From positions 1-12,696 of the forward strand of contig DAIDJN010000027.1 in assembly GCA_027451365.1 (NCBI GenBank): a DNA stretch of 12,696 nt, written 5' to 3'. Every line of letters begins with the position of its first letter. Within the stretch, counting starts at the first letter, position 1. Source of the DNA: Phycisphaerales bacterium. GTDB lineage: Bacteria > Planctomycetota > Phycisphaerae > WQYP01. Shown in pieces: positions 1 through 9,883 of this stretch. Under the pieces are notes generated by a model. The model did no database searches and was not told the DNA's origin. It worked only from the letters and a program-made list of their open reading frames with translations. The position numbers and the translations under genes were made by a program.

Positions 1-1
1 T

Positions 2-424
2 TGGTACGAGGAAGCTATCCGGGAAATTCCCGGCGGCCTCGTTACCCAGGCACAGGCGGCTAAAATGCTTAACCTTAGCCGGATGGCCGTTTCAAGGCTT
101 ATCACCAGAGGCCATTTGCGAGCTGTCCATTTTCCACAACAGACCAATGTCGAAGGGCTTAAGGTATCAAACGACGACCCTTTTTGGCTTAAGCTTATGG
201 CGGAGCTTGACCCGGTATTTGGAGACGACAGCGCTGCCCGCATCACATGGCCGGAGGCATGTTACGTATCATTCGCAGACATCAAAAAGCTATACTCCGA
301 TGCCAAACTCGCCGACAAATGCCGGATAAACTGGCACAAGGTATTCCATGGACCACAGGCGGCCAAGGACGGCCAAATCTCCACAGCGGCCCCGAAGTCG
401 AGAAAGGCCGGTGCGCCGTCATGA
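2..424 (+). CDS. Helix-turn-helix (excisionase/MerR-like HTH_17-type) DNA-binding protein, 5' truncated
   Basis: The frame is open from base 2 (WYEEAIREIPGGLVTQAQAAKMLNLSRMAVSRLITRGHLRAV), which matches the xis-like HTH pattern, so the ATG at 65 is internal. The stop overlaps the next start (ATGA at 421-424). Confidence 0.7.
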   Translation, partial: WYEEAIREIPGGLVTQAQAAKMLNLSRMAVSRLITRGHLRAVHFPQQTNVEGLKVSNDDPFWLKLMAELDPVFGDDSAARITWPEACYVSFADIKKLYSDAKLADKCRINWHKVFHGPQAAKDGQISTAAPKSRKAGAPS

Positions 425-624
425 ACGATCCCGCCCCTCAACCAGCACTGCTCACGATTCCCGAGGCCGCCGAGATGCTGCGCGTCAGCGTTCGCACCGT
501 GCACAACTTGCTTAGGGGACACGATTCAATTCCCTTCGCGAAAATAGGGCATCGCGTTGTGATTGCCCGCGAAGATATTCTGAAATATGTGGACAGGCAC
601 ACCAACAGGCAGGGAGTTCATTAA
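421..624 (+). CDS. Excisionase / recombination directionality factor (HTH_17 family), 67 aa
   Basis: LLTIPEAAEMLRVSVRTVHNLL...IPFAKIGHRVVIAREDILKYV is a typical xis-family signature. ATGA coupling to the upstream gene; ends 2 nt before int. Confidence 0.88.
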   Translation: MNDPAPQPALLTIPEAAEMLRVSVRTVHNLLRGHDSIPFAKIGHRVVIAREDILKYVDRHTNRQGVH

Positions 625-626
625 CC

Positions 627-2597
627 ATGGCCAGCCTGCAGCAGGAATCAAAGGGACATTGGCGGATCAAGTTTACCGACGGCCATAAGGGGCAGAGCAT
701 CCGATTGGGCTTCTGCGACAAGAAATCCGCACAAACAGCCCTGGCCTTTATTGAAAGACTTATCGCCACAAGGCGACTTGCCGTCACTCCGGATGGCGAA
801 ACGATCGGATGGATGAACCGCCTGGACGACACGGTCCACCGAAGGCTTGTACGGGCTGGGCTTGCAACGCCGAGAGAATCCAACGGATGCGAAACTCTCA
901 AGCAACTTACCGATAAATTTACCGCCACCACCGCCTGCAAGGACGCAACCGCCGTTTTCTACAGCCATACCGTCCGAAACTTGCTCACATATTTCACCAA
1001 CAGGCCGGTAAATGCCATCACTGCCGCCGCGGCTGACGATTTCCGCGTGTGGATGGCCCAAGATCAGAACCTCGCAATCGCCACGGTAGCTCGCCGCGTA
1101 ATCGCCTGCCGCACGATCTGGAACAAAGCTATCCGATGGGGCATGGCCAAAGAAAATCCGTTTACGGGCGTTAAGGCCGGTCTGCAGGCCAACGAGGCCA
1201 GAAAGCAATTCGTGCCCGCGGCAAAGGTCCAGCAGATTCTAGACAATTGCCCCGACCCGCAATGGCGGCTGATCGTCGCATGTTCGCGATTCGGAGGGCT
1301 TCGCATCCCCTCGGAGATCATGACGTTGCGCTGGCAGGATATCCACTGGAATGAGTGTTATTTCACGGTCCGATCCCCCAAGACGGAGCACCACGCGGGC
1401 GGAGCCTCCCGCTCCGTTCCACTGTTTCCGGAAATTCGCCGGGAATTGCTTAGCTGCAAGGCCCACGCCGGCCCGGCGGACGAATACGTCATAACAGGGG
1501 GGCGACGCTTAAGCGCCAACCTGAGAACCCAATTTGAGCGCATCGCCAAACGCGCTGGCGTTAAAGTGTGGCCCAAGCCGTTCCACAATATGCGTGCAAG
1601 CCGCCAAAGCGAACTGATGGCAGAATACGGCCTGTCCACCGCCTGCCAATGGCTGGGCAATAGCCCTGTTGTGGCCGCCCGGCATTACGCCGTTTCAACT
1701 GATCTCAATGGCGATTTCCGCAGGGCATCCGGAATCCCGGAACCCGGCCCAAATTCCGGCCCATTTCCGGCCCAAATTCCGGCCCCGCACGTAGCGGCAA
1801 CAAACTGCCACCAGATGCAACACGAGCACCAAACCACTGAAAATAAAGGGGATTTGCACTTAGCTGCCAAAACCTGCAATCTTGTGCAGACGGATCTTAT
1901 GGGCGTGCCAAGATTCGAACTTGGGACCTCGTCATTATCAGTGACGCGCTCTAACCAACTGAGCTACACGCCCGTTTTTTGCCCTTGCCGAATCACTGGA
2001 TGGGCGACTTGCTCGCCCCAGCTTGATCCGGTTTCATCCAGTTTCATTCGCCTTGGCAAAAACCAGAGCACGGTATCATGGCATTTCGACGGGCTGGTGT
2101 CAAGGCAAATTTGCCGACAGCAAAGCCCTTTCAGCCGTCGTCGGCTTTCGGCGGCAAAACTGGCCTCCAATGCTCGGAAACGCTACGATTCCCTAATGGA
2201 AAGCATCAGCTATCGCCTGAATATCGCCCTGGACCCGGCCGATATTATCCGCGTGTTTCGGGCTTCGGGAATTCATCGACCAACGGATGATCCAGCGAGA
2301 ATTTCCCGCATGTTCGGTCACGCTAATCTCACCTTTTCCGCGTGGGCCGGCGCGACACTTGTTGGGGTCTGCCGGGCACTGACGGATTTCAGCTATTGCT
2401 GTTATGTTTCCGATCTGGCGGTGGACAAGGCTTATCAGGGCCGCGGAATAGGAACCGGCCTGGTTGACCGCCTGCGTGCCGCCGTGGGTGAACAGGTATC
2501 CATTATTCTGGTTTCCGCACCTGACGCGGCGGGATTTTATCCGACCATCGGCTTTACCCCCATTGAATATGGGTTCATTATCCGAAGAAAAAAATAA
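627..2597 (+). CDS. Tyrosine recombinase/phage integrase (core ~aa 1-365); the ORF extends through att/tRNA and is in frame with the downstream GNAT
   Basis: RBS AGGGAG at 611-616. Catalytic pattern R226 (GLRIPSE), K252, H320-x-x-R323, N345 (LGNS in place of LGH), Y354. No stop until 2595-2597. Confidence 0.92.
   Translation: MASLQQESKGHWRIKFTDGHKGQSIRLGFCDKKSAQTALAFIERLIATRRLAVTPDGETIGWMNRLDDTVHRRLVRAGLATPRESNGCETLKQLTDKFTATTACKDATAVFYSHTVRNLLTYFTNRPVNAITAAAADDFRVWMAQDQNLAIATVARRVIACRTIWNKAIRWGMAKENPFTGVKAGLQANEARKQFVPAAKVQQILDNCPDPQWRLIVACSRFGGLRIPSEIMTLRWQDIHWNECYFTVRSPKTEHHAGGASRSVPLFPEIRRELLSCKAHAGPADEYVITGGRRLSANLRTQFERIAKRAGVKVWPKPFHNMRASRQSELMAEYGLSTACQWLGNSPVVAARHYAVSTDLNGDFRRASGIPEPGPNSGPFPAQIPAPHVAATNCHQMQHEHQTTENKGDLHLAAKTCNLVQTDLMGVPRFELGTSSLSVTRSNQLSYTPVFCPCRITGWATCSPQLDPVSSSFIRLGKNQSTVSWHFDGLVSRQICRQQSPFSRRRLSAAKLASNARKRYDSLMESISYRLNIALDPADIIRVFRASGIHRPTDDPARISRMFGHANLTFSAWAGATLVGVCRALTDFSYCCYVSDLAVDKAYQGRGIGTGLVDRLRAAVGEQVSIILVSAPDAAGFYPTIGFTPIEYGFIIRRKK
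1744..1785 (+). repeat. Tandem direct repeat of four CCGGCCC cores (candidate integrase arm-type sites)
   Basis: CCGGCCC at 1744, 1756, 1767 and 1779 with spacers AAATT/ATTT/AAATT, plus extra CCGG at 1729 and 1737. Lies about 115-155 bp from the tRNA 3' end. Confidence 0.75.
1796..1889 (+). promoter_or_regulatory. Helically phased TGC(A/C) repeats flanking an IHF-like site (candidate Xis/IHF sites of the att arm)
   Basis: TGC at 1806, 1816 and at 1855, 1865, 1875, 1885 (exact 10-bp period). CAAACCACTGAAA at 1830-1842 matches the reverse IHF consensus YAANNNNTTGATW with 2 mismatches. Confidence 0.5.
1900..1973 (-). tRNA. tRNA-Ile (GAT), CCA not encoded
   Basis: Minus strand reads GGGCGTGTAGCTCAGTTGGTTAGAGCGCGTCACTGATAATGACGAGGTCCCAAGTTCGAATCTTGGCACGCCCA: 7-bp acceptor stem, anticodon arm CGTCA-CTGATAA-TGACG, T-loop TTCGAAT. 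Confidence 0.97.
2075..2103 (-). promoter_or_regulatory. Sigma70-type promoter for tRNA-Ile
   Basis: Minus strand TTGACA-17 nt-CATGAT with a TG extended -10, about 100 nt upstream of the tRNA. Confidence 0.7.
2161..2189 (+). promoter_or_regulatory. Candidate promoter for a leaderless GNAT transcript
   Basis: TGGCCT-17 nt-TACGAT with the ATG (2196) 7 nt after the -10 box and no Shine-Dalgarno sequence. Confidence 0.45.
2196..2597 (+). CDS. GNAT family N-acetyltransferase, 133 aa (same frame as the integrase)
   Basis: LVGVCRALTDFSYCCYVSDLAVDKAYQGRGIGTGLV carries the acetyl-CoA motif A (QGRGIG), followed by AAGFYPTIGF. Complete single-domain size from MESISY. Confidence 0.92.
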   Translation: MESISYRLNIALDPADIIRVFRASGIHRPTDDPARISRMFGHANLTFSAWAGATLVGVCRALTDFSYCCYVSDLAVDKAYQGRGIGTGLVDRLRAAVGEQVSIILVSAPDAAGFYPTIGFTPIEYGFIIRRKK

Positions 2598-2699
2598 ATA
2601 ATGGCGGCCAGTCCGGAGCACTGCGGCGGCCGCAACAAATGGCCCAAAACCGGCGAACCGACCCATCAATGGCCGTCGCGCGCATCGGTTTTGCGCCTT

Positions 2700-5468
2700 T
2701 TATTCGTCCGCATCAGTTTGATCGCCGTCTAAATTCTTGCGATACACGCCTGAATACGCCAGATGCCATGTCAACAGCGGGCGAAGCACGAATACGGCCG
2801 AAAGATAAATGCACCCGATTCCAATGGCCATAATCAGACCCAGACTTGCAATTCCGCGATCGCGCGCCAGCGCCAGAAAACCGAAGCTGGAACAGGTGAC
2901 AAAAGCACACAAAAGAAGTGCCCGTTCGCTGACATCCCATAATCGCCAGACCCGCCGGGGATTATGCCGCGTTTCCCGATACCGGTGCATCATGAACACG
3001 CCATATTCATGACCGGCACCGATCAAAATGGGCATCGCGAAAAAATTGGCGAAATTCCACTGCAAACCGACCACGCCCATTAATCCAATCAGCATTGGCA
3101 ACCCAAGTGCCAGCACGCTGACGGTCGCCAGAGTCTGGCCGATATTGCGCAAATCCAGAAACACCAGAATAATCACCAGAACCAGCGCCATGATCGTGGC
3201 CGACACAAACGCCCGGCGAATGGCCCGCGTGGAATGAAATAACTGCACGGCAATCCCCGTCAGGTCCGCGTCCGATGCAACCAGCCCCGGATGCGTCCGG
3301 TCGCCCTGCAGAGCTACCACAAAATTGTGCAGCGCCCGTTGATGCCATAAATCGAAGCGCGGCGTTATATAAAGCGCATACGTGCCGTTGGCTGAAACAT
3401 AGTGGGACCGGATGGATGCCGGCAGCCGTGCAATATTCAGCGGTCCGGGCGAAAGCGTGTCGGCGAGCACATGCAATTCGCCCATAAACCGCATTTGCCA
3501 GGCGGTAAGCCGCTGGGCGGTCTGTTTTTGGGTTGTCGGCCCGTGCGACTGTGCCCGGCGAATCAGCCCGGAAAATGTGTGCAGATCGCGAACCGCCGCC
3601 TGGCCGGCGGAAGTTTCGGCCAGCGAAGCGGAATCGGAAAAATGAGAGGCCAGTGCATCGGCGGCAGTCGCAATTTCCGCAAGCTGCCCGGGTTGAATCT
3701 TGCGCGGAGTCCGCCATTGAATGGCCGCTATCGCGGTGGTGTGCTGTGCCAGAAACCTCTGTTTTTCCTGAGCATCCAGCAGGCTGCTGGTGGTCCGAAT
3801 GGTGCTGCCGGCAATTAAACTGTTCATGTTCAGCGTTTTGCGAATGGGGGAAAGTGCGGCGAGTGAATGCGAAAGCACCACGGCATACCAGGATGGCATT
3901 TCATGAACAAGTTCCACACTGGTCAGACCAGGTGCCTGCAAAGCCAGCAGATTCGGATTAAATCCGATCCGCAAGCCCAGGGGCAGCAGCGCAAACAGCG
4001 TTCCGACCCACAGTATCGGGCCAATGAAATAATGCCAGCCGGCCGCCGGGGCCGCGCGACGATCACTGTAGCGGGCCGAGGCGTGAACGCGCCGCAGCGG
4101 CGGGGGAAACAGCACCAGCAGTGCCGGCAGAACGGTATATCCCGCCAGAAGGCAAAGCAGCAGGCCACCGCCGCCAATAATGCCCAGTTCCGCATCTCCG
4201 CGAAAGCGGGTCAGCGTGGCTACAAAAAAAGCCCCCGCGGCCCCCAGGCATGCGGTAATAACCGGCGGGCTGACATACCGAAAAACCCTGGCCCAGATGG
4301 CTGTATTTCGTTCATAGCGTTTGGCTTCGCGCCGGTAGCGGATCAGGATTTGAATCAGATAATCCATGCCGATACCAATCAGGGCGATGACAAAAATGGT
4401 TGAAAGAAGGTTCAAGCGGCCTACCGTCAGTGTGGCGTAGCCAAAGGTCCAGGCGATTGCGATGGAAAGGGAAAAAGCGGCAAAAAAGGCCAGTCGCACC
4501 GATCGCAGCATGACGACAAGGCCCAGAAACACCACAATCATCGCGACAATTTCCGCCCAGTTGGTGTCATGCGTGGTGATGCGCATTTCATCCGCTGAAA
4601 GCACCGGCCGACCGGTTAAACCAACACGAAACAACGCCGAAAATGGTTGTGCCGCCGCCTTCATGGCGGCGTGAATTTTGACCAGCGGGGCGGAAACCGC
4701 CGCCAGCGAATCAAATGTAAATTTCGGATAGACCTTAATCAGCAGAATATGATGCCGCGGATTATCCGCCGGATGAATATAGTAATAGCCGAATGCCGCC
4801 GGCGTCTGTTCCACCGTTGGGCCAAGTGTGGAGATATCCGGCATGGGAATTCTGGTTGAACCCCTTGCCGGTTGCCGCAAAGTTGCGATCCAAGTGTGAC
4901 AAAGCTGTGTCACAAACGCGGCAGTTTGCGCGTCGGGTGGTCCGGCGGCGGCACCGTGCAGAAATCTGGCGATGCGGCTTTTTCCAAGCAGGCTGGTGAG
5001 AAACGTGGGGCGCGATCCCCAAAGCGCAAGCAGCGGCGCAAGCGTTCCAGAAAATGCGGCGGCTTGTTTCACCTGACGCCATCGGGCAAACAGCAGCGAC
5101 TGGGAACCAAGCTGTTGTAACGGCACGCGGTCATCCACGGAAGCCACACTGTTTGGCAACGCTTGCAGCCGCCGGGTTATCGCATTGGCCGCCGCGATCC
5201 ATTGGGCTGTGGTCGGCGGATGTGCCGGGTCAACGGGCTGCACCACAATAAAGGCGGCCTCATTTTCCGGAAACTCGTGAATAAAAGACAAATACTGGTG
5301 AAAAAAGGGAACTGTGGGTGAAAACAGTTTGTTTTCGTCAGTGGATACACGCAGGTATCGCGCCGCAAACAAAGCTGAAATACCCGCAAGAACTATCCCG
5401 ATTATCAGAACAGTCCGCGGGTAACGAATCAGTCGCAGGGAATGTTTAAGAATTTTTCGATGCGTCAT
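2700..5468 (-). CDS. hpnN: MMPL/RND family transporter, HpnN-like hopanoid transporter
   Basis: 922 aa with two repeats of periplasmic domain plus TM block. Motifs GLTGRPVLSADE, GIGMDYLIQ, NFANFFAMPILIG. Adjacent to an hpnO-like gene. Confidence 0.78.
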   Translation of the reverse strand: MTHRKILKHSLRLIRYPRTVLIIGIVLAGISALFAARYLRVSTDENKLFSPTVPFFHQYLSFIHEFPENEAAFIVVQPVDPAHPPTTAQWIAAANAITRRLQALPNSVASVDDRVPLQQLGSQSLLFARWRQVKQAAAFSGTLAPLLALWGSRPTFLTSLLGKSRIARFLHGAAAGPPDAQTAAFVTQLCHTWIATLRQPARGSTRIPMPDISTLGPTVEQTPAAFGYYYIHPADNPRHHILLIKVYPKFTFDSLAAVSAPLVKIHAAMKAAAQPFSALFRVGLTGRPVLSADEMRITTHDTNWAEIVAMIVVFLGLVVMLRSVRLAFFAAFSLSIAIAWTFGYATLTVGRLNLLSTIFVIALIGIGMDYLIQILIRYRREAKRYERNTAIWARVFRYVSPPVITACLGAAGAFFVATLTRFRGDAELGIIGGGGLLLCLLAGYTVLPALLVLFPPPLRRVHASARYSDRRAAPAAGWHYFIGPILWVGTLFALLPLGLRIGFNPNLLALQAPGLTSVELVHEMPSWYAVVLSHSLAALSPIRKTLNMNSLIAGSTIRTTSSLLDAQEKQRFLAQHTTAIAAIQWRTPRKIQPGQLAEIATAADALASHFSDSASLAETSAGQAAVRDLHTFSGLIRRAQSHGPTTQKQTAQRLTAWQMRFMGELHVLADTLSPGPLNIARLPASIRSHYVSANGTYALYITPRFDLWHQRALHNFVVALQGDRTHPGLVASDADLTGIAVQLFHSTRAIRRAFVSATIMALVLVIILVFLDLRNIGQTLATVSVLALGLPMLIGLMGVVGLQWNFANFFAMPILIGAGHEYGVFMMHRYRETRHNPRRVWRLWDVSERALLLCAFVTCSSFGFLALARDRGIASLGLIMAIGIGCIYLSAVFVLRPLLTWHLAYSGVYRKNLDGDQTDADE

Positions 5469-8252: not shown

Positions 8253-9230
8253 TTAGGTCGAAGGCCCGCGTTTCTTTTGCGGCGCATACATGCGGGCGGA
8301 CAGCACGGCCGCCCAGATTGCCAGTGGCAAAGGAGATATGAACATCAGAAAAGAAACCGCCATCGATTGATCTTCCAGCGGCACAATATGAAACAGTACC
8401 AGCAGGCTGCGGATTGCCAGCAGGGGAACCATCAGAGCCATACTGATGCGGTACGCCCGCCCCAGCGGCATTTGGTTGGGCCGGTTGATCATGGCAATGA
8501 GCGGACTGATCATCACAATCATTAGAACGCTCCAGAGTCCGTTTGAGAGAAAAATCACCAGACCGAACATGACGGTGATCAACGCTGTAATCGTGGCATG
8601 GTTGGAATTAATAAGCGCCAGCAGTGTGGCGCTGCTGACCTTTACCGGGGGCGGCAACAGTTGGCCGTTTTTGCCCTGACCAATCGGCATTCCATTGGAC
8701 TGAGCCAATACAGTCTGCAATTGCCGGACAGAAACGCTTTGCCGGGGTGTGGCGAACATCGCCCAGGACCCGGTGTAGATCAGATGGTTTTGCGTCAGAA
8801 CCATGACCATTGGCATGGAAGTGTCACGGTACAGGCCCGTCACGTTCGGCCGCACGATAAGCTTCCCGCCCGATCCGACAATTTTGAGCGGCTTTTTGCC
8901 GGGCGTGGGTATGACTGACAATCGTCCGTTGGTCAGCAGCATGGGATCAAAAGATTTGTCGTAACTGACGGCGAACTGCCGGGCCAGATGCATGATGCGG
9001 CTGGCCATGGGATATCCCGTCAGCAGTGAGCTGGCAAAAAGAACCAGCAGGAATGGCCAGAGAATTACAGTCACGCGGTAACGAGCTGCAATCGCCCACT
9101 GGCGGGGTTCTATCAACAGCATGAGAATAAGCGCAAGCAAACGCGGTGGCCGCTGAAAAATAATCGGCTGGGGCTTTACGGGAGGGGTGGAGGGTGCCGG
9201 CGGCGGGCTGGACGATGGGTTTTGTGTCAT
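8253..9230 (-). CDS. Membrane protein (DUF1189-like topology) with proline-rich N-terminus
   Basis: One N-terminal TM, an extracytoplasmic domain, about 3 C-terminal TMs and a basic tail. Start at MTQNP chosen by inference. Confidence 0.65.
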   Translation of the reverse strand: MTQNPSSSPPPAPSTPPVKPQPIIFQRPPRLLALILMLLIEPRQWAIAARYRVTVILWPFLLVLFASSLLTGYPMASRIMHLARQFAVSYDKSFDPMLLTNGRLSVIPTPGKKPLKIVGSGGKLIVRPNVTGLYRDTSMPMVMVLTQNHLIYTGSWAMFATPRQSVSVRQLQTVLAQSNGMPIGQGKNGQLLPPPVKVSSATLLALINSNHATITALITVMFGLVIFLSNGLWSVLMIVMISPLIAMINRPNQMPLGRAYRISMALMVPLLAIRSLLVLFHIVPLEDQSMAVSFLMFISPLPLAIWAAVLSARMYAPQKKRGPST

Positions 9231-9316
9231 GTTCTGACCCCGGCAGGAGGAGGAATCCACACAGGCCGCGGCGCGCATGTACGCCACGGCCGCGGGCAAT
9301 CATTCAGGATCGGCCC

Positions 9317-9883
9317 TCAATCGTTAACTCGCCCCAGATATTCGCCAGTGCGTGTATCCACACGCACTACCGTGCCCTTATTGATGAAATCAGGCACGTT
9401 CAGGATCAGGCCTGTTTCCAGGATTGCGTCTTTGCCGACATTGCTGACGGTCGCACCTTTGATGCTTGGCGGACAGTCCTTAATTTCCAGTTCAACCGTG
9501 TTGGGTAATTCAACTGAAAAGGGCTTGCCCTGATACATGGTGATCTGCACGGCGGTGTCCGGCTTCAAATACTGCACGGCTTCGCCCACCACATCGCCGG
9601 AGAGTTCCAATTGTTCGTAGTCGACCAGGTCCATGAAGCAATGCCGCCCGTTATCGGAGTACAGGTATTGCATCGGCTTTTGTTCGAGAAACGCTTCTTC
9701 AAGCGTGTCATCCACGCGGAATCGCTGCTCTATAATGCTGCCGGTCTGGGTGTCCTTAAGCTTTACCTGCATGAAGGAACGCCAGTTTCCCTTGGAAACT
9801 TTGGCAAAATCATGGACGACATATAGCTTGTTGTTGTATTCGACCGCTACGCCTCGCCGCAGGTCGATAGCCTTGATGGACAT
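9317..9883 (-). CDS. efp: Translation elongation factor P
   Basis: 188 aa. DLRRG...MQYLYSD...FMDLVDYEQ...VELPNTVELEI...KDAILETGL.LNVPDFINKG..VRVDTRTGEYLGRV is the EF-P signature. Confidence 0.96.
   Translation of the reverse strand: MSIKAIDLRRGVAVEYNNKLYVVHDFAKVSKGNWRSFMQVKLKDTQTGSIIEQRFRVDDTLEEAFLEQKPMQYLYSDNGRHCFMDLVDYEQLELSGDVVGEAVQYLKPDTAVQITMYQGKPFSVELPNTVELEIKDCPPSIKGATVSNVGKDAILETGLILNVPDFINKGTVVRVDTRTGEYLGRVND

Follow-up and report, generated by a model that had tools for sequence, protein, structure and literature searches.

An integrase gene that crosses its own attachment site: predicted exchange of a C-terminal peptide upon integration in a large Planctomycetota integrase family

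Why would an integrase gene have no stop codon after its catalytic tyrosine and instead continue in frame, through a tRNA gene read in antisense, into an acetyltransferase gene of the host? This question is raised by contig C27 (DAIDJN010000027.1 of GenBank assembly GCA_027451365.1) from a Phycisphaerales bacterium, the whole of which, 12,696 nucleotides (nt), is called the window here. The draft genome resembles a metagenome-assembled genome (MAG), with 88 contigs, 4.06 Mb and 55% G+C, and the source names of homologues point to uncultured Phycisphaerae of mine drainage. The open reading frame (ORF) in question, int, lacks a stop after Tyr354 and continues across the attachment (att) core, an antisense tRNA-Ile(GAT), the promoter region of the tRNA gene and an intact GNAT acetyltransferase. 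An earlier sequence-only reading had described this layout, and its description proved accurate in every detail when set against the ORF list, Pfam, ARAGORN and Rfam. Our own results lead us to consider it likely that attP lies within the 3' part of a lambda-type tyrosine integrase gene whose tail is swapped upon integration, that this property is family-wide, and that the run-on into the GNAT gene is accidental.

The integrase is assigned to the lambda Int-like tyrosine recombinases with an arm-binding domain, both features being found by sequence comparison and in a structural model. Pfam matches on the 656-amino-acid (aa) ORF comprised Phage_int_SAM_5 (aa 94-180), Phage_integrase (aa 197-354) and GNAT domains (aa 557-646), with the catalytic domain PF00589 scoring 29.8 bits at a cut-off of 27.1. 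In an alignment of 38 sequences R221, K252, R323, H353 and Y354 were invariant and W342 nearly so, and in our reading these six positions are the putative catalytic residues of a tyrosine recombinase. The AlphaFold2 (AF2) model of homologue P0116 matched full-length lambda Int (1z1b_A) over 364 columns (E 1.1e-10), arm-binding domain included, and the N-terminal domain is modelled as three strands and a helix. The linker that follows the catalytic domain in the window shows weak coding periodicity (G+C at codon positions 1 to 3 of 0.64/0.52/0.59 vs 0.63/0.47/0.74 for the catalytic domain). Its equivalent in P0116, residues 387-463, is disordered in the AF2 model (predicted local distance difference test, pLDDT, <50).

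The sequence-only reading had suggested looking for a duplicated 3' fragment of the tRNA at the element's opposite end. BLAST of window positions 1650-2200 against the genome located this duplicate on contig C18, where an identical 14-nt core, ATGGGCGTGCCAAG, is found at 2885-2872 together with an arm repeat. In the window the core covers int codons 425-429, downstream of the catalytic Tyr, and codons 425-449 are the antisense reading of tRNA-Ile. On the minus strand of C18 the core is followed, in the expected order and orientation, by the arm repeat and then by an ORF that ends in an ATGA overlap with the start of rep, which encodes a 473-aa Phage_GPA rolling-circle Rep. The arm repeat (20 nt at 2821-2802, minus strand, 50 nt from the core) is one further copy of the CCGGCCCAAATT-like units that are repeated in tandem on the int side, and the repeats on both sides of the core are candidate arm-type binding sites for Int. 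When attP was rebuilt by script from the two ends, int translated across it as an open frame of 498 aa that ends in a conserved peptide, with its TGA overlapping the rep ATG. In the attB rebuilt by script, 118 codons without a stop precede the GNAT start in its frame. We read the window as holding one end, the right (attR), of an integrative element that is at least ~10.6 kb long and whose target is the 3' end of tRNA-Ile(GAT). The reconstruction establishes that the circular form would encode a 498-aa Int ending in the peptide, and that the integrated form would lack the peptide and carry antisense tRNA in its place.

A survey of homologous integrases for tRNA-antisense tails, also suggested by the sequence-only reading, showed such tails to be the rule. 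Of 8000 candidates scored in a protein search, 1051 were homologues at E≤1e-10. Among the 120 listed, lengths of 430-450 aa predominate, and in most the C-terminal residues are an antisense reading of the T-arm and acceptor of a tRNA. For the survey, 80 loci were taken from genomes that represent species, almost exclusively Planctomycetota MAGs, and the window brought the set to 81; one collection holds at least 585 loci of the family. An antisense tRNA lies ≤900 nt downstream in 70 of the 81 loci, and the int frame enters it in 65 of these 70. The frame stops inside the antisense tRNA in 58 loci and beyond it in six, the window included, and it runs off the contig after crossing the tRNA in one. 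Among the other loci, the frame stops before the tRNA in five, no tRNA was found in seven, and in four the frame runs off the contig before any tRNA. From the catalytic box to the tRNA the median distance is 177 nt, at a G+C content of 58.7%. Over this stretch the +1 control frame is open in 26 of the 70 loci, the +2 frame in 11, and mononucleotide shuffles in 12.7% of cases, compared with 65 loci for the int frame itself. The 70-codon element-side tail of the window stays open in 6.9% of mononucleotide shuffles, and we do not attribute its openness to chance because the open frame is kept in so many related loci.

The antisense tails use all three phases of the tRNA (33, 21 and 11 of the 65 loci) and usually end 8-22 codons into it, and elements of this integrase family target at least 17 tRNA types. 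Distant homologues, with 27-35% identity and located on viral contigs, have ordinary short tails; the tRNA-antisense tail thus belongs to one large clade. At the level of sequence, the survey establishes that the placement of attP inside int is conserved across a large Planctomycetota integrase family.

Two degraded relatives of the integrase were also observed. One, on contig C68 of genome G000, is what is left of an integrase C-terminus beside tRNA-Val(GAC) (locus L003, 3325-3651), with 85% identity to window 1639-1691. No stop interrupts its frame between the HY motif and the antisense tRNA, where a TAA in the D-arm ends it; the remaining integrase has been lost, and a Sel1-repeat-like gene lies upstream. 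In another genus, a related integrase beside tRNA-Ile (L171, G010:C88, 442-1295) is matched by two pieces in different frames and is probably a frameshifted pseudogene.

What the circular form gains in exchange for the antisense tail was indicated by several longer homologues, which drop the tRNA-antisense sequence within a few residues and then end in a motif of ~30 aa. A gapless alignment of 13 sequences, one of them the left-end ORF of the element itself, defines this hydrophobic peptide as D.xL..V..AWP.L....R, and the element's own left-end peptide on C18 matches the family hidden Markov model (HMM) with an E of 2.6e-13. In a six-frame HMM search of the fetched DNA, the peptide was in frame with int on 7 of 10 attP-form contigs (the seven distinct ones being L085, L086, L094=L095, L104, L108, L111=L112 and L051) and was also present at the left end of the integrated element L046.

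A sample free of bias as to frame was obtained by searching ten better-assembled genomes with integrase and peptide profiles, a pair being defined as a peptide upstream of int on the same contig and strand. The 18 int genes or fragments gave nine pairs, one of which is the L046 locus, and the other nine had no partner on the contig. In every pair an exact core (14-42 nt) is present at the 3' end of a tRNA, and the ORF obtained by joining the two ends keeps the int frame without a stop through the whole peptide. Thus 10 of 10 distinct attL/attR pairs, the element's own and nine from five other genomes, rebuild in frame, where frame alone would predict one third for each. The targets of these ten pairs are Ile, Leu, Glu, Arg(tct), Arg(ccg), Met (twice), Lys, Val and Tyr. 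The rebuilt 498-aa ORF and the family-wide conservation bear out the earlier proposal that attP lies inside the 3' end of int and that the integrated and excised states differ in their C-terminus.

The peptide looks like coding sequence. G+C at third codon positions exceeds that at second positions in 8 of 8 sequences examined, and pairwise differences at codon positions 1/2/3 are 0.51/0.46/0.58, the third positions varying most. In the AF2 model of P0116, a natural attP-form protein (mean pLDDT 82.8), the peptide forms two helices, 466-477 and 480-494 (pLDDT ~90), after the disordered linker. The peptide matched no Pfam family at E≤0.1, and the module (at least one match at E≤0.01) is present in 144 of 201 sampled Phycisphaerae genomes.

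Some copies of the module were encountered away from integrases of the family. Genome G000 has two further modules of a tRNA fragment and a peptide, at C60 ~9011-9400 (minus strand) and C58 ~85386-85595 (plus strand), on contigs without an integrase of the family; these may be left ends of other elements, or scars. A solitary peptide module with no tRNA nearby (L220, G176:C3 287400-290200) ends an open frame that is also 498 aa long. This frame was rejected, as it encodes a non-integrase.

In the circular copy, Int would run from the catalytic Tyr through a linker of ~70 codons, which is also the attP arm with its tandem repeats, then through the 14-bp core and the arm repeat to the two-helix peptide. 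By analogy with IntP and IntX of Mx8, the two Int isoforms would differ in activity or stability, such that recombination itself would rewrite the enzyme. The prophage form of Mx8 Int is reportedly less active. On the same analogy, the full-length excised form would favor integration, and a weaker or unstable prophage form would help keep the element in place. In this element the overlap of the int stop with the rep ATG may also couple translation of rep to that of int in the circle only. Such coupling was rejected as a general feature, since the ATGA overlap with a next gene was seen in only 2 of the 12 peptide ends examined (the element's own and 11 others), namely at the element's own end and at L046, both of which are rolling-circle elements.

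A more far-reaching model would describe a phylum-wide self-rewriting integrase. Here the two-helix module would act as a state sensor, attached in circular copies only, that sets directionality or stability without or alongside an excisionase. In this element and in L046 the read-through would additionally license translation of rep via the ATGA, so that replication would occur only after excision. We put this model forward tentatively, as a possibility that we would sooner doubt than adopt. A predicted complex of Int aa 1-375 with the element's own peptide scored 0.02 against a mark of 0.32, in a run made without controls, and counts neither for nor against an interaction.

Several observations weigh against the reading that integration swaps the tail of Int. 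The contig joins are partial; C32 and C27 share 60 nt, and C18 is placed without a link. No empty attB was found, and the C18 flank with its adjacent 1227-aa gene was unmatched next to tRNA-Ile in 11 relatives. Int terminates ahead of the tRNA in 5 of the 70 loci with a downstream antisense tRNA. The peptide is out of the int frame on three attP-form contigs, L013, L124 and, weakly, L015. An in-frame ATG lies inside the element's own core, which would permit separate synthesis of the peptide. Finally, genomes G178 and G095 carry six peptide modules each, with the integrase family profile unmatched there at E≤1e-20; in these genomes the module may serve other integrase families or persist as scars. 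On the three out-of-frame contigs (L013 4700-5117, L124 650-1222 and L015 1150-1701) the peptide and int frames differ and both are open across the core. The mismatch could reflect recent indels, assembly errors or a genuinely separate peptide.

The last of these would correspond to the best surviving rival explanation, namely that a small left-end gene of its own encodes the peptide, started at the core ATG or elsewhere and perhaps acting as a regulator or as a leader for the next gene, and that int is open only for the passage of ribosomes or transcripts. We consider this unlikely. A separate gene would fit the three out-of-frame contigs, in which the peptide is nevertheless open back through the core, but frame alone predicts agreement in one third of cases, whereas an open, in-frame peptide was obtained in 10 of 10 rebuilt pairs and 7 of 10 attP-form contigs. 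The ATG in the element's own core would offer a start; in L046, however, the attL peptide frame is closed by a stop immediately ahead of the core and offers no ATG beyond it. The overlap of the stop with the ATG of the next gene, here and in L046, would suit a leader, whereas most attP-form contigs have a T-rich stretch or an unrelated gene after the peptide and not a coupled gene. Also in line with a separate peptide are the modules without a nearby int of the family and, as a lead only, the nearest clusters in the ESM Atlas, which are Planctomycetota hypothetical proteins of 67-82 aa (score 0.89).

The sequence-only reading had further proposed that the Int-GNAT chimera of the integrated state is meaningful, and here our results depart from it. 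That the chimera is a selected functional isoform altering stability or directionality is, in our judgment, very improbable. The frame is indeed open and in register with an intact GNAT, and a scan predicted no terminator-like site on the plus strand between int and the GNAT gene. However, transcription would have to proceed head-on through an active tRNA gene and its promoter. On the minus strand the scan placed a promoter-like site at 2103-2075 (TTGACA-17-CATGAT) that would serve the tRNA, and the block at 2055-2105 is conserved beside tRNA-Ile in a genome of the same genus (G001). The family pattern also speaks against selection for the chimera, as 58 of the 65 read-through loci stop inside the tRNA, usually after 8-22 codons, and all three phases are in use. 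Even among the five elements found at tRNA-Ile the tails measure 8, 17, 22, 43 and 231 codons, with the window as the extreme.

The host side gives a similar picture. A GNAT gene was found within 1.5 kb of tRNA-Ile at none of the 11 tRNA-Ile loci of relatives, and GNAT homologues occur in 2 of 25 relatives, each in a free-standing open frame (140 and 148 aa). The homologue in G008 aligns from residue 4 within its 140-aa open frame, which supports the GNAT start at 2196, and the GNAT protein is predicted to be made from this ATG of its own. The 99 codons on the host side (1899-2195) contain no stop in the int frame and two stops in each other frame, and the 222-nt intergenic part is open in 5.8% of mononucleotide shuffles, in agreement with the earlier estimate of a percent-level chance event. 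Among the 120 listed homologues none carries a GNAT domain; one (P0059, PF03050) has a precomputed Pfam domain outside the integrase families. The sole comparable case is L065, where from position 5047 to the end of the locus int reads an antisense tRNA-Val(TAC) and then more than 850 codons into an unrelated host gene, which in our reading resembles a 2-oxoacid dehydrogenase E1 component. In a family of which one collection alone holds at least 585 loci, a few cases of this kind are to be expected. Given the three tail phases, the lack of a GNAT gene at the relatives' tRNA-Ile loci, the stand-alone homologues, the openness of shuffled sequence and the run-on in L065, we regard the fusion as incidental, and the Int-GNAT read-through as an unselected accident of one genome. 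With 231 codons past the end of the tRNA and no stop, the integrated form here would yield a long aberrant protein or a non-stop product.

It is barely credible that the long ORF arose from an error in assembly or sequencing or purely by chance, with the true stop soon after Tyr354, for although the window is one whole short contig of a MAG-like draft in 88 contigs, the same openness recurs in 65 of 70 independent loci from many assemblies, the homologues cluster at 430-450 aa with tRNA-antisense ends, and a check for a frame-restoring indel in Logan contigs from four mine-drainage metagenome runs listed none over 400-3000, in piecewise coverage with no listed piece spanning 1860-1900. Loose ends of Logan contigs at the tRNA represent other tRNA contexts.

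The closest precedent for this arrangement is IntP/IntX of Mx8. In both systems a tyrosine integrase gene contains attP within its coding sequence past the catalytic Tyr and acquires a new 3' end at a tRNA 3' end (tRNA-Asp in Mx8), and an excisionase-type gene lies directly upstream of int (uoi in Mx8, HTH_17 here). The two features that mark the Mx8-type arrangement, a core inside int past the catalytic Tyr and a tRNA-dependent new C-terminus, are both recognizable in the rebuilt element. As described in a review (PMC6070905), attP of Mx8 lies inside the int coding sequence and integration makes a new int 3' end; the Islander paper (PMC4383910) states that the Mx8 and SSV integrases extend across attP. 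Mx8 Int also has, as read by eye, a tRNA-antisense-like GLEP stretch ~110 aa before its end. No sequence similarity to Mx8 Int was detectable (BLASTP E 2.3), and tblastn against 50,697 phage records gave no Mx8 hit. In contrast to Mx8, what is swapped here is a short, conserved module of two helices that follows a disordered linker and is common to hundreds of elements at 17 or more tRNA types; in this element the next gene is a rolling-circle rep whose start codon overlaps the module's stop.

The sequence-only reading had pointed to SSV1/pNOB8 and to the BPs repressor as precedents. The comparison holds in that an att site lies within a gene, but neither is the closest system, as SSV1/pNOB8 split off the catalytic domain and BPs crosses a repressor. 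With SSV1/pNOB8 the element shares an att site within the integrase gene and a gene that is changed by integration. In SSV-type archaeal integrases, as part of PMC8371274 relates, integration at the att site inside int splits the gene into inactive halves. Here aa 1-370, with all conserved domains, are contiguous at attR and only the C-terminal module is exchanged; membership in the class of SSV-type suicidal integrases was rejected since the catalytic part stays whole at attR. For BPs-type mycobacteriophages, part of PMC4557955 reports that attP lies inside the repressor gene and that integration alters the C-terminus of the product. The gene crossed there is a repressor and not an integrase. 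The repressor tail that is removed upon integration of BPs is a degradation tag, whereas no ssrA-like tag is evident in the peptide studied here. Lambda Int resembles P0116 in fold, including the arm-binding domain, and in having arm-type repeats that flank the core. In lambda, expression of int depends on the integration state through sib, which lies beyond attP. Unlike the present case, in which the protein sequence changes, attP of lambda is outside the int ORF and control is exerted at the level of mRNA stability. A literature search found no description of an attP-inside-int arrangement in Planctomycetes.

The Mx8 arrangement has been cited as a curiosity; the same layout is conserved as the norm in a very large family of integrases unrelated to Mx8 Int, which is a new member group of the Mx8-type arrangement. 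The defined C-terminal module of 30 aa makes its role directly testable. There are also consequences for annotation. Gene callers annotate these integrases with tRNA-antisense tails, typically at 430-450 aa, and the left-end peptides as separate hypothetical proteins. The overlap of int with the tRNA, together with the peptide, could be used by island-finding tools as precise markers of element ends, and the Int-GNAT "fusion" serves as a warning example of an accidental long ORF.

The features of the window are collected in Table 1. The element is ordered as C18(2871..1, reverse complement), a gap, C32 and C27(1..1898). Window positions 1-60 are identical to C32 5798-5857, and this exact 60-nt overlap places C32 to the left of the window. 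C32 (5.9 kb) has three large ORFs (497+, 543 and 814 aa), none with a Pfam match at E≤0.01, which are presumably cargo or structural genes of the element.

Table 1. Features of the window around the integrase gene and the att core.
Feature	Position	Strand	Evidence
HTH_17 (Xis/AlpA-type) small DNA-binding protein, 125 aa	247..624	+	Pfam PF12728 E 1.3e-13, ORF list
Whole integrated-state ORF, 656 aa	627..2597	+	ORF list, translation
Conserved tyrosine integrase body, aa 1-370: N-terminal arm-binding-type domain, SAM-like core-binding domain, catalytic domain with H353/Y354	627..1736	+	Pfam; invariant columns of 38- and 53-sequence alignments; AF2 of homologue P0116
Variable linker of the int ORF, int-proximal attP arm; open in frame, poorly conserved	1737..1898	+	Open in 65/70 related loci vs 12.7% of shuffles
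Tandem 11-12-nt units, CCGGCCCAAATT-like; 19-nt repeat at 1744-1762 and 1767-1785	1744..1785	+	Repeat finding, BLAST to C18, pattern searches
14-bp att core ATGGGCGTGCCAAG: final 13 nt of tRNA-Ile + 1 nt	1899..1912	.	BLAST, sequence, script
tRNA-Ile(GAT), integration target, attR side	1900-1973	-	ARAGORN; Rfam RF00005 76.3 bits
Host intergenic region	1974..2195	.	Promoter/terminator scan; block 2055-2105 conserved
Host GNAT acetyltransferase gene, free-standing, 133 aa from M524 (ATG at 2196)	2196..2597	+	Pfam GNAT families; G008 homologue

The stop of the HTH_17 gene lies 3 nt upstream of the int ATG, and its product is a candidate excisionase. Upstream of it, a second small ORF (window 2-424, plus strand) is truncated by the start of the contig and has weak HTH matches; it may encode a regulator of the element.

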